Part shown: piece after piece, positions 16,851-26,521 of the stretch
Layout of the letters: each line of letters starts with the position of its first letter
How positions within the stretch are numbered: position 1 is the stretch's first letter
Source: an uncultured Alphaproteobacteria bacterium
GTDB taxonomy: Bacteria; Pseudomonadota; Alphaproteobacteria; Rhizobiales; Hyphomicrobiaceae
DNA: 64,000 nucleotides
Direction of reading: 5' to 3'
Assembly (NCBI GenBank): GCA_963770295.1
Contig: CAVYPA010000002.1
Coordinates: 53,672-117,671 of the forward strand
Made by a program: the position numbers and the translations under genes
The notes under the pieces: model-generated
The model's database searches: none
Told to the model about the DNA's origin: nothing
The model's input: the letters and a program-made list of their open reading frames with translations, nothing else

Positions 16851-17312
16851 TCAGGTCTTGTTGCCGTTGCCTGCCGCCTGATGGACCGCGGCACGAATGC
16901 GTTGGTAGGTGCCGCAGCGGCAGACATTGGTCATGGCCTCGTCGATGTCGGCATCTGTCGGTTTCGGCTTGGTCTGGAGCAACGCTGCGGCTGCCATGAT
17001 CTGACCTGACTGGCAGTAGCCGCATTGGGGTACATCAAGCGCTAACCAAGCCATCTGCACGGGATGATCTCCCTTTGGCGAAAGGCCTTCGATGGTAGTA
17101 ATCTTATCTGTACTCTTCAGCGAACTAACGGGGATGGAACATGAGCGCTGCACCTCCCCGTCAATGTGGACCGAGCAAGCGCCACACTGGGCAATCCCGC
17201 AGCCGTACTTGGTGCCGGTCAATCCGAGCTGTTCGCGCAACACCCACAGCAACGGCATATCTCCGTCTGCGTTCACGTCGACGGTCTTTCCATTCACGTT
17301 CAACTTGACCAT
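16851..17312 (-). CDS. (2Fe-2S)-binding small subunit of the hydroxylase (IorA-like)
   Basis: 153 aa. '[16 protein letters not shown]' and '[11 protein letters not shown]...VCRCGTY' cluster motifs. Confidence 0.9.
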
Positions 17313-17635
17313 GACTCGTGGCTCCGATGCGGGTTGCCGATTCGAACATCATCCGCAATACGAAGGAATATTAGCCAGCGTTCCGGGGCGGCAATGTTCA
17401 CATTCACGTGCGTGGGCGGGAGCACTCAGCTCAGATGCGCTGCACAGAGCGTCACGCCCGGGAACGCTAGCGTTGCCTTTCACGGCGCAAGGGAAGCGCG
17501 CAGAGCACGCCTTGGCCTTCAGCGTTGTCATCGACGAAGGTTCCTCGCGGGCGCCCTGGAGGCCCTGGGCGATTTTGTCGCTCGAACAAAAGTCCGATTT
17601 TGTGGCGCAATTTTGGATTGTCCGCCCAGACACTG

Positions 17636-17905
17636 GTGCTCAACCAATATCATCATTGCCACGGAAGTTATCGGTTTCGTAAGGGAAGCGATCCGAAAGA
17701 TCGCATCCGTCTTCATACCCAACTGCCTCTCACGATCTTGGAACCCGAACGCTTTGAGGTACGCAACGCTACCGTTGCGAGCGACCAGGACGACAGCTCC
17801 GGGGATCCGCCCCTTGTCTTCCTCTGATGGGAACGCAACATCAATCCGTTTCAAGCGCTCCGGTACCACCGACTTCACTAGCTTCGGCTCTCGGAAAGGC
17901 GGCAA
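17636..17905 (-). pseudogene. N-terminal fragment of a serine hydrolase (class C beta-lactamase / esterase family)
   Basis: 'IPGAVVLVARNGSVAYLKAFGFQD...DAIFRIASLTKPITSVAMMILVE' contains the S-x-x-K motif. The similarity ends after about 90 codons and the ORF runs into unrelated sequence. Confidence 0.6.
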
Positions 17906-18215
17906 GATGGAAGAGGAAACCGAGGCGACGGGGTCTATGAGGTTGATGACGCAAAATGCAGCGACGCCAGTACGACGTTAAGCTCGACAAGGATTTCAGG
18001 GTGATCGTCATCACGCGCGACTGACCGGGAGTCTGTCTCGGTCGATGCAAGCCAGTTGGCCTGATCGGCATGATGCTTGGCGTTGTTGATAGAGCCGTCT
18101 TCGCGCCGATTCTCACATACGCGGGCTGATAGATTGTGAAATGCAAATTAATCCATTCTTCACGATTGCTTTCCACAGGCGTCGCAAACCATGACATGGA
18201 CTCCCCCAGCAACTC

Positions 18216-18317
18216 ATGAGACGGATCGGCATGGTCAGAGAATTTATCATTCTCTACGTGATCCTCAGCCTCGCCCTTCTTACGGTGGTGGTGATGGCTG
18301 TGCTCGTCGCAGGGTGA
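18216..18317 (+). CDS. Mini-ORF A: predicted single-TM hydrophobic peptide (33 aa, or 28 aa from the ATG at 18231)
   Basis: '(MRRIG)MVREFIILYVILSLALLTVVVMAVLVAG*'. It is a paralogue of mini-ORF B and shares the ATCGGCATG start context. It is below the ORF-track cutoff and I translated it by hand. Confidence 0.45.
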   Translation: MRRIGMVREFIILYVILSLALLTVVVMAVLVAG

Positions 18318-18451
18318 GAAGAAACACAGCCTACGCAGAATTAACCACTCATTAACCGTTGGCCCTCACCGCTGACTGTGCGCGCTAAAAGAATTAAACT
18401 TGCCGTCACGAATAATTTCCACAATCACGCAAGTCATGCAATGCCATCGGC

Positions 18452-18544
18452 ATGCCCCGCGAGTACATCTTCCTGCACACGATCTTCAGCCTCGCCATTC
18501 TCCTGATGGCGGTTCTCATGGCCGTAGTCATCGGAGCAGGCTGA
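18452..18544 (+). CDS. Mini-ORF B: predicted single-TM hydrophobic peptide (30 aa)
   Basis: 'MPREYIFLHTIFSLAILLMAVLMAVVIGAG*'. Shared pattern RE[FY]I[IF]L..I.SLA.LL..V.MAV. Nucleotide similarity to ORF A continues past the stop codon. Confidence 0.45.
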   Translation: MPREYIFLHTIFSLAILLMAVLMAVVIGAG

Positions 18545-19242
18545 AAGAAGGGCTACGAGCATAAGAGCCCTGGCAAATCATTGGCTCACTTTCTGCGAAT
18601 ACCAATATTGATCGACCGCCTTCTTGCAGGCTGGGATATCTCCCGTCGGCAACGAACAACCCCGCAATCCCAGCCTAGATGACGTTAGAACGCCAGGGCT
18701 TCCTGGGGTTCCGTCAGGACGTCACTGTACCCAACTGCAAAGGCGTAACTCCCGAAGCCTCCTTTGCTATCGGAGCCGATCTGGCTTCTGGGGTTCCAAA
18801 TGGATAAGCAAAATGCCGGCAGATCGTACAGCATGCTCCATGGCGGATGTGGCGACGATACGTTTTTCTGATTTTCGTCCCGCCCTGATTTCTCGCGGCC
18901 GGCGCGCATTCGAGACGGGCTTGTCCGATCCCAATATCGCTCATCGCGCCTACGACTATGCCTAGTCGTTAGCCCAATTCGCGCAAGGCGCGCCTACGCT
19001 GGAGGGATACCGAGCGGGAAGTCTTAAGGAACTCGAAGCCAGCGGTGCGACCCGATTGGTGATGGCGCTTGGGATGTTCAACCTGCACAGGGCAATCTTC
19101 GCCATTGGTATAGGTTCTGGCTTCCGCCACTTTCCGTGGGGCGACCACGAGCAAGCTCGCGTTGATCTGCTGGCGATTGACTTCGAGATACGCAAGGGTC
19201 GCGCGCAAGTGCGTGAGCACACTCTCTCTATATGCAGTTCGT

Positions 19243-19710
19243 TCATCCCCAGCCCACGGCTTCAACCGCATCCCGTCTTTGCGTATTTGCCGGCACGTAC
19301 CAGCATTTGACCTTAACGGGCATGCCGGGACGGTCCCTGAGGCAAGCATGATAGCCACCATCCCGTGAAGGCAGCTTCTTTACCTCAGGGCCGACACGCA
19401 CATGGCGGCCATGAACGTCTGCCGTGTAACTGCGGTCATATGAGTAGTAGACGACGTTTTCTGCAGGAAAGCAGTCTTTGTCGCTGCAGCAGTCGGCGTC
19501 GTACCAGCTATGACCTGAAACTATCGTCGGCGCGCAAAAGAACAGGACTGTCAATACCAGCCGTCTCCACCGTCCGATCCATGCACCCGGCAGTTGTCCA
19601 ACCCACTTGTTCACGATGTGTGTTGGAAATTTGGATGTCGTGCTTTGCCGCTCTACCTCCTTCAGCACAATTCGCAGCGCTGCAATGACTGCATCGACAT
19701 CTGTCGACAT
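19243..19710 (-). CDS. Hypothetical Cys-rich protein, probably exported (start uncertain)
   Basis: Hydrophobic 'LVLTVLFFCAPTIVSG' is followed by 'HSWYDADCCSDKDCFPAENV...', a motif I have seen in small alphaproteobacterial hypothetical proteins. Confidence 0.45.
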   Translation of the reverse strand: MSTDVDAVIAALRIVLKEVERQSTTSKFPTHIVNKWVGQLPGAWIGRWRRLVLTVLFFCAPTIVSGHSWYDADCCSDKDCFPAENVVYYSYDRSYTADVHGRHVRVGPEVKKLPSRDGGYHACLRDRPGMPVKVKCWYVPANTQRRDAVEAVGWG

Positions 19711-25471: not shown

Positions 25472-26521
25472 TTACGCAAGTGCCGCGGTTATTGGACGTG
25501 CACGGTAGACTTCCTTCTTGGTCAGCACCGCCCAGGCGATGCGCGCTGTCTTATTAGCCAATGCCACCGCAGCAACCTTTGCCGGCTTGCGCGCCAATAG
25601 TTGCGTCAGCCAAGGGTACTTCTCGGGATGGGCGCGCGCCTGCCTGATCACGGCAAACGCCCCGACGACAAGGATGCGCCGCAGATATCGGTCGCCTTGC
25701 TTGGAGATGGGTCCTAGCCGCTGTTTGCCGCCGGTCGAATCTTCGCGCGAGACGATGCCGATCCAGGCCGCAAAGTCGCGCCCTGTCTTGAAGATCGAAG
25801 CATCTGGAACCGTGGCGACAATGGCACTCGCGCCGAGGACGCCGATGCCAGGAATGGTCTCGAGCAGTTTGCTGTCCTCGTTTTTGCGATGCTGAGAAAG
25901 AAGGCGCTTCTCGATCGCACCAATCTCGGCCTGGCAAGAGGCAATCTGTGCAACAAGCGCTGATAGGCTGGCGCGCGCATTCTCGGGCAGGCGGGCATCG
26001 CTACTGTCGGCGATGATTGCAAGCAGCATCTTGAGACCGTCATAGCCTTGCGCGGCAACGATGCCGAGCTCGGCCAGGTGCGAGCGCAGCCCATTGATGG
26101 CCTGTGTACGCTGCCGCACAAGTAGGTCGCGCACGCGGTGCTGCATGAGCTGGGCTTGCTGCTCGGGCGTCTTCACCGGCACGGTACGCACCGTCGGTCG
26201 CCGGACCGCCTCGCAACACGCCGCAGCATCGACAGCGTCGTTCTTGTTGCGTTTGACGTAGGCCTTCACGTCCTTGGCCGGCATCAACCGTACGTCATGG
26301 CCGAGCTTCTTGAGCTCGCGCGCCCAGTAGTGGGCCGACGCACACGCTTCCATGCCGATGAGACACGGCGCGAGTTTGGCGAAGAAGGGCAGAACTTGTG
26401 ATCGCCGCAACGGCTTGTTGAAGACCACCTTGTCGTTGGCGTCGACGCCATGCACATGGAACACCTGTTTGGCAAGATCAATGCCGATCGTGATAACCTG
26501 CATGTGGACGGTTCCCCTCAT
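25472..26521 (-). mobile_element. IS110-family insertion sequence (intact transposase ORF; element ends not determinable by eye)
   Basis: The ORF probably starts at 26503. It reads 'MQVITIGIDLAKQVFHVHGVD...CLIGMEACASAHYWAREL' (DEDD_Tnp_IS110) and '...IPGIGVLGASAIVATVPDASIFKTGRDFAAWIGIVSRE.STGGKQRLGPISKQGDRYLRRILV' (Transposase_20). Confidence 0.9.

Follow-up and report, generated by a model that had tools for sequence, protein, structure and literature searches.

Small single-pass membrane regulators are a described class of proteins (PMC12648545). MgrB, PmrR, AcrZ, YncL, and the CydX-like proteins are about 30 aa in length, possess one helix, and are encoded by a gene of their own. Type I toxins are recognized by a length of less than 70 aa and one transmembrane helix, and they are frequently, though not necessarily, duplicated in tandem (PMC2887945). 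They usually end in a polar, charged, or aromatic C-terminal tail, and their ribosome-binding site is hidden within a structured 5' UTR. The antitoxin is an antisense RNA, whose gene lies opposite to the toxin or is convergent or divergent with perfect complementarity, and it neutralizes the toxicity that overexpression causes (PMC2887945, PMC8309996). At the zor locus, the similarity between tandem copies extends beyond the ORF, and single and tandem forms have a patchy occurrence (PMC2887945). IbsC, ShoB, and DinQ are described as lacking positive charges at the C-terminus (PMC8309996).

The window analyzed here is the whole stretch of 64,000 nucleotides from the genome of an uncultured soil alphaproteobacterium of the Hyphomicrobiaceae (G000). 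It carries two small ORFs in tandem on the + strand, referred to as ORF A and ORF B. Small membrane proteins are already known as a class; the A/B family is a new family. It adds an unannotated microprotein family, supported by selection, to the Alphaproteobacteria. The importance of the family is modest, since it comes from a narrow uncultured lineage.

Two tandem ORFs and their duplication

ORF A (18231-18317, + strand) encodes 28 aa, or 33 aa if the ATG at 18216 is the start, and is predicted to form a single hydrophobic helix. It is the less constrained of the two paralogues. ORF B (18452-18544, + strand) encodes a putative single-pass membrane microprotein of 30 aa. The gap between the two is 134 nt. 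Both ORFs lie where the initial annotation had placed them and have the translations that it gave. Over the best 19 residues, the Kyte-Doolittle mean reaches 2.84 in B and 2.96 in A. The only charges in B are R3, E4, and H9, and its C-terminus is Gly-Ala-Gly, without a polar or aromatic tail.

The two proteins share 57% amino acid identity over 30 columns. At the nucleotide level, their local alignment score is 76, whereas none of 2000 shuffles scored above 35 and none of 5000 random genome windows above 34. The similarity is far above chance, and the pair is a real tandem duplication. The period of the duplication is 221 nt. Direct repeats cover 68 nt at 71% with this spacing, and a further 32 nt upstream at 72% (18146-18177 versus 18392-18423). 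The duplicated unit therefore takes in approximately 60 nt of upstream sequence, which was overlooked in the initial annotation. The block upstream of copy A (18146-18230, + strand) is presumed to be a promoter/leader and is colinear with the block before B, apart from a 24-nt insertion adjoining the A start. No third copy of either unit was found in the 7.8-Mb genome, so the similarity does not stem from a dispersed repeat family; a non-coding repeat family had been named beforehand as an explanation that would undo the coding interpretation.

Several finer features of the first description need correction. The start context ATCGGCATG is indeed common to A and B in the window, but it is peculiar to this genome; TT[CT]GGGATG takes its place in the remaining 10 copies of B. 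The hairpin after B (18549-18571) is present, but it has no T-run on the + strand, was not called as a terminator, and is not a canonical one; it occurs in 5 of 11 B loci and is missing from 6. The low-GC islet is a mild dip (0.51-0.53 versus 0.55-0.60 nearby). Two observations concern the window copy of B. The six bases before its ATG (18446-18451) are identical to those of A in this copy alone, which may reflect gene conversion, and its leader has a 1-nt deletion at 18424 relative to the other B copies.

The surroundings of A/B are a patchwork, parts of which correspond to dispersed locations in five relatives. A truncated reading frame of the beta-lactamase family (PF00144) lies on the opposite strand at 17528-17905. 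It belongs to a broken serine hydrolase gene at 17528-18010 (- strand), divergent from ORF A, in which the PF00144 fragment has an E-value of 3e-17 and the 5' part is in another frame. A 42-codon ORF lies at 18679-18807; in locus L028, a frameshift affects it close to its end. Further along, an ORF at 25472-26521 (- strand) encodes a 349-aa IS110-like transposase, as judged by inspection.

Distribution

Full-length matches to A/B were found in G000 and one relative (G028) only, that is, in 2 of 61 relatives, 2 of 42 genus genomes, and 2 of 401 family genomes. Many of the searched genomes are incomplete, and absence means not found in those searched. At the order level, the search returned G000 only (1 of 401 genomes). 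A degenerate-pattern search identified nine metagenome loci, all of which encode B. A profile searched against 1.84 billion representatives gave seven matches, and a second search retained 9 of 52 candidates; all are A or B variants. The initial annotation made its coding claim depend on conservation in related genomes. The B frame is kept in 11 loci, and the family is found in 2 of the 401 family genomes. The A/B family is narrow and accessory and belongs to one alphaproteobacterial lineage.

Neither Pfam nor NCBIfam contains a family that matches A or B at E-values up to 1, and the profiles of PmrR, YncL, and Flp pilin likewise do not match. The earlier statement that the sequence is not KdpF, CydX, CcoQ, or any other named family therefore stands. 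Rfam gave no match at the gathering score and three sub-threshold eukaryotic matches outside the ORFs in 17300-19300. In PHROGs and PADLOC there was nothing meaningful for A/B, and the match to phrog_35948 (E 0.17) is noise. A and B were not found in the viral contigs, phages, and plasmids searched. Literature searching, in which papers cannot be queried by sequence, found no paper on the family.

Several candidate matches were discarded. Six genus DNA matches of 19-34 nt (E 0.04-0.1) were dropped as chance. In 58 of 60 matching family genomes, the matches covered part of the helix at E 0.0018 or worse, mostly within long frames, and were also dropped, as was a match of 15 residues to a Parcubacteria record from the genome-contig scan.

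Selection on ORF B

The 11 loci that encode B (the window, G028, and nine metagenome contigs) form approximately seven groups of near-identical sequence with six distinct coding sequences. The start and stop of B are retained in all 11 loci, with TGA as the stop in seven and TAA in four. A comparison of synonymous and non-synonymous divergence had been suggested at the outset. Over the six distinct sequences, there are 14 synonymous and 7 non-synonymous alleles for 22.7 synonymous and 67.3 non-synonymous sites. The resulting ratio is 0.17 with a binomial p of 7e-5, a value that is overstated because the kin are not independent. This substitution pattern shows purifying selection on the B reading frame. 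In four of the other five frames over B, the counts are 1-3 synonymous versus 18-19. The changes in codons 2-11 of B, which lie outside the RNA junction discussed below, are also mostly synonymous.

What is kept among the loci is a compact unit. In the two most distant versions, L028 and L025, 79/93 positions of the ORF and 56/67 of the leader are identical, but just 9/30 beyond the stop and 10/33 ahead of the leader. All-against-all comparison sets the homology boundaries at -63/-73 to +91. As judged from these alignments, a leader of approximately 70 nt is retained together with ORF B while the flanks turn over. On this comparative basis, B is clearly a selected gene in a self-contained cassette of roughly 165 nt, composed of the leader and a 30-codon ORF. 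The downstream DNA differs among the loci, so the ORFs are not leader peptides, as had been argued before.

In an 11-member protein cluster, all variants have a hydrophobic helix, and all are 30 aa long except one, which is 35 aa by an upstream start. Forms of 52-113 aa in the databases are upstream extensions in which the added part has no coding preference. A longer fused form of B was also considered and rejected, since the 569-aa cluster member is an unrelated AMP-binding enzyme without B sequence. The clustering of this enzyme (P0043) with a 52-aa B variant is a clustering artefact.

ORF A, the weaker paralogue

ORF A is whole in 2 of the 11 loci, the window and L021. It is reduced to its last codons in four (G028, L020, L024, and L027), is truncated at its stop in L028, and is missing from the four TAA-type loci; the L022 contig contains just 96 nt of upstream sequence. 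Database variants of A have Arg or Gly in the middle of the helix or have lost the C-terminus. Compared to B, ORF A retains Met1, Arg3 (AGA versus CGC), Glu4, Leu8, Ile11, Ser13, and the terminal Ala-Gly. The retention of these residues suggests that translation of A continued over a large part of its history. The initial annotation regarded both ORFs as translated small membrane proteins. For B, purifying selection supports this assignment; for A it is plausible only. A is the weaker paralogue, whose frame and hydrophobicity are retained relative to B but which is lost or altered in most loci. ORF A arose when the whole cassette was duplicated in tandem, and it is drifting or being lost. The locus thus captures a duplication as it diverges and one copy disappears.

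The leader and a CtrA-type box

The conserved block upstream of B (18381-18451, + strand) is approximately 70 nt in length and forms the left part of the minimal cassette. It is weakly structured, with 3-bp stems only in its consensus fold, and contains no Shine-Dalgarno sequence before B. The start region of B shows no unusual structure, with z between -0.7 and +1.2 in all seven loci folded. A leaderless start of B is equally possible.

A perfect CtrA-type box, TTAA-N7-TTAAC, is located in the spacer at 18341-18356, approximately 100-110 nt before B, and was missed in the initial annotation. This sequence is the CtrA consensus determined by ChIP-seq in Hyphomonas (PMC7200025). The consensus is also given in PMC11264516, where most CtrA-induced promoters have one such site at -35. 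A box at -35 would put the transcription start near -70, which is where the conserved block begins. The perfect box is intact in 5 of the 11 loci and absent from 6. In the genome, which contains a CtrA-like ORF, TTAA-N7-TTAA occurs 22 times, compared to 1-10 times for other spacings (3-13). Boxes with one mismatch are not enriched at N7 (190 versus 165-242), and near-consensus boxes before A and B were not counted. The 22 perfect boxes include one before a Flp-pilin-like ORF (C10:445471) and one before an XerC-like ORF (C6:291957), both named by inspection.

There were no promoter or terminator calls in 17800-19000, where consensus scans can miss alphaproteobacterial promoters. One soil RNA library contains three contigs of at least 99% identity over 17868-18121, 18240-18381, and 18355-18497. 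These contigs are a weak hint that the A/B region is expressed; they show neither strand nor ends and may derive from DNA. The library has no contig cover at 17300-17867 and 18498-19500, which carries no weight.

A candidate single-pass membrane regulator

By analogy with known small regulators, there is about an even chance that B is an accessory single-pass membrane microprotein that acts on a partner by helix packing. B would be transcribed from its own promoter, with CtrA control in the copies that retain the box, and its translation would begin at an open start region that lacks a Shine-Dalgarno sequence. The protein would then insert into the inner membrane as one helix, spanning approximately residues 6-28, with Arg3-Glu4 at one membrane face. 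There it may act in trans through the packing of helix against helix, with a larger membrane protein or B itself as the target. The packing surfaces would be the small-residue face Ala20-Ala24-Gly28 and the polar His9/Ser13. Such an action is likened to that of MgrB, PmrR, and AcrZ.

The initial annotation offered a small membrane-protein regulator as one of two possibilities. It is a better reading than a toxin, although every step beyond a selected ORF that encodes one helix is inferred. No partner gene travels with the cassette among the loci, so the mechanism is drawn by analogy. Unlike MgrB, PmrR, AcrZ, YncL, and the CydX-like proteins, B matches no Pfam or NCBIfam family, belongs to one narrow lineage, and is accessory. 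An accessory distribution of this kind is unusual for the regulator of a core complex and counts against the regulatory role. Language-model neighbours are other membrane proteins of 29-31 aa with scores of 0.81-0.87, which serve as leads only. The nearest named Atlas clusters are YncL (0.84) and PmrR (0.81), both below the 0.9 threshold for a lead.

Comparison with type I toxins

The other possibility raised at the outset was a toxin-antitoxin locus of type I, in which A and B would be membrane-depolarizing toxins silenced by antisense RNAs. This is unlikely, though it is the strongest of the alternatives. Like zorO/zorP, ibs, and ldr, A and B are small (28-33 and 30 aa, below the 70-aa limit), have a single helix, are duplicated in tandem with similarity past the ORF, and occur singly or doubly in relatives, a patchy pattern that is described for zor (PMC2887945). 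The coding region of B is structured. The C-terminus of B, which ends in Ala-Gly, has no polar, charged, or aromatic tail, but C-terminal charges are also missing from IbsC, ShoB, and DinQ (PMC8309996). An EcfG-like motif at 18689-18712 (- strand) points towards B in the window and in L028. However, over the 1.2 kb that was scanned, chance would give such a motif approximately 15% of the time (2.0% per 300 nt), and its GGAAC is lost in L021.

Unlike zorO/zorP, ibs, and ldr, the A/B locus has no long structured 5' UTR with a sequestered ribosome-binding site, no polar C-terminus, and no antisense unit that could be found. Scans for promoters, terminators, folding minima, and repeats gave no conserved antisense unit. 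Neither a terminator-like hairpin nor a free-energy minimum outside the ORFs is common to the seven loci, and the seven regions contain no perfect repeat of the tisB/zor type. Since the flanks are replaced on both sides among the loci, only -70 to +93 is left for an antitoxin. Tandem duplication discriminates poorly, as the genome contains at least five further arrays in which short hydrophobic ORFs follow one another in tandem. The 470 short hydrophobic ORFs form 39 same-strand pairs within 1 kb, among which A/B ranks 12th, and several arrays of signal-peptide-type genes rank above it. The resemblance to type I toxins is therefore unsupported beyond size and tandem duplication.

A predicted RNA junction inside ORF B

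The 3' part of B is predicted to fold into a three-way RNA junction at 18485-18545 (+ strand), from codon 12 to the stop, with moderate support. The fold of 18482-18547 has a z of -3.98, and 0 of 200 dinucleotide shuffles were as good. In the six distinct sequences, from which the junction was itself derived, 142 of 144 cells pair. Two of the 24 pairs change on both sides, which 15 of 500 shuffles also reach. One of these compensatory pairs links a change in a Phe codon with the TGA/TAA swap. When 14 substitutions were re-dealt under amino acid constraint, at most one break together with at least two compensatory pairs had a joint P of 0.0002-0.004. Changes to G-U assign the junction to the + strand, and two of the three amino acid changes in this stretch preserve or improve pairing. 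From this modelling, the junction is somewhat favored to be real. With its closure over the stop codon, the junction may shield the 3' end or set the pace of elongation.

The junction raises the question of what is selected. SgrS/SgrT and SR1/SR1P are dual-function RNAs, and B resembles them in that a short ORF overlaps a candidate conserved RNA structure. Unlike these RNAs, the B locus has no base-pairing target or RNA function shown, and the support for its structure is moderate. The microprotein could be combined with the fold in a doubly coded mini-gene. In such a case, the 165-nt unit would encode both a 30-residue membrane peptide and a three-way junction over the stop that controls peptide output or RNA fate. 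With the CtrA box, it would yield a cell-cycle-timed, membrane-active, and possibly toxic peptide without a separate antisense gene. There is a rather slim chance that this combination is correct. If the junction in the coding region or the CtrA timing is true, the locus would serve as a compact model for how a membrane peptide is controlled by structure within its ORF.

Another proposal is that the selected object is, also or mainly, a structured RNA of approximately 61 nt and that the peptide is a second product or a passenger. The stability, pairing, and compensatory changes described above favor it. Against synonymous shuffles with the codon usage of the genome, however, the fold is ordinary (z -0.6 to -1.8, with 38-258 of 1000 as stable). 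ORF A folds no better than its shuffles (z -0.97 and -0.39), and the B of L025 favors a different inner fold. A covariance model found no further copies, and its other matches are NtrY-like and other coding helices. An RNA-centred or dual role of this kind is improbable.

Other explanations

Compared to these readings, a defence or exclusion peptide has a still smaller probability. Here, a membrane peptide in rapidly exchanged islands would block phage DNA entry or a surface receptor. Its accessory distribution and its location among gene fragments and transposase remnants in differing contexts fit such a role, and the CtrA box would link it to the pilus/flagellum phase. However, there is no PADLOC or meaningful PHROG match, the cassette is absent from the viral contigs, phages, and plasmids searched, and no defence genes were identified near it among neighbors known by ORF listing.

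It is very doubtful that an antisense frame is the selected gene or that the region is non-functional. In 10 of 11 B loci, the antisense frame that shares the wobble position stays open for at least 48 codons, and its 13 synonymous versus 8 non-synonymous changes give nearly the ratio of B. Yet its stop position varies among the loci, a frameshift breaks it in the window, and a stop codon interrupts it across A. In addition, the upstream 63 nt have no frame preference, and the homology stops exactly at the sense stop codon.

The idea that A and B are diverged members of a wider family of small helices, ELRE-x-x-WLAS, with three genome copies and EcfG-type promoters, can be dismissed with similar assurance. 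In both, the helix starts with Arg-Glu and continues with x-[IV]-[FW]-L-x-[ST]. However, hhalign gives a probability of 0.6% (P 0.097), A and B come 393rd and 1142nd, respectively, among the six-frame matches of a 31-sequence profile in this genome, and the + strand near the two ORFs carries no EcfG motif. Homology was rejected, as the profile tests show no link. The two families share a genome, a genus, and Arg-Glu before one helix; unlike A/B, ELRE-x-x-WLAS is widespread and has EcfG-type promoters.

Other small ORFs in the genome

ELRE-x-x-WLAS is an unannotated single-helix family of 36-57 aa that was found in the CtrA-box survey. Its copies in G000 are at C10:513537-513656, C15:76406-76513, and C10:459028-459135, all on the - strand. 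It occurs in 55 of 401 family genomes and 35 of 41 other genus genomes (loci L061-L092) and has no Pfam or NCBIfam match. Within 300 nt upstream, GGAAC-N15-18-[CG]TT is present in 19 of 32 fetched copies, 17 of them at -55 to -85, against backgrounds of 2.0% and 0.24%; the kin are not independent. The C15 copy sits after a NepR-like ORF (Pfam E 0.095). The family looks like a small membrane protein of the EcfG/general stress response.

At least 14 short ORFs of 38-48 aa combine a signal-peptide-like stretch with a predicted mature peptide of approximately 15 residues and make up a candidate secreted peptide family. They are often in tandem and have good Shine-Dalgarno sites. Sites in G000 include C18:168959-169483 (- strand), C20:92076-92242 (- strand), C21:253322-253488 (+ strand), and C7:89302-89375 (+ strand), and singles occur on C4, C6, C16, and C24. 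At C1:293659-293825 (+ strand), tandem ORFs of 39-43 aa have a lipobox-like LGAC motif and are candidate small lipoproteins.
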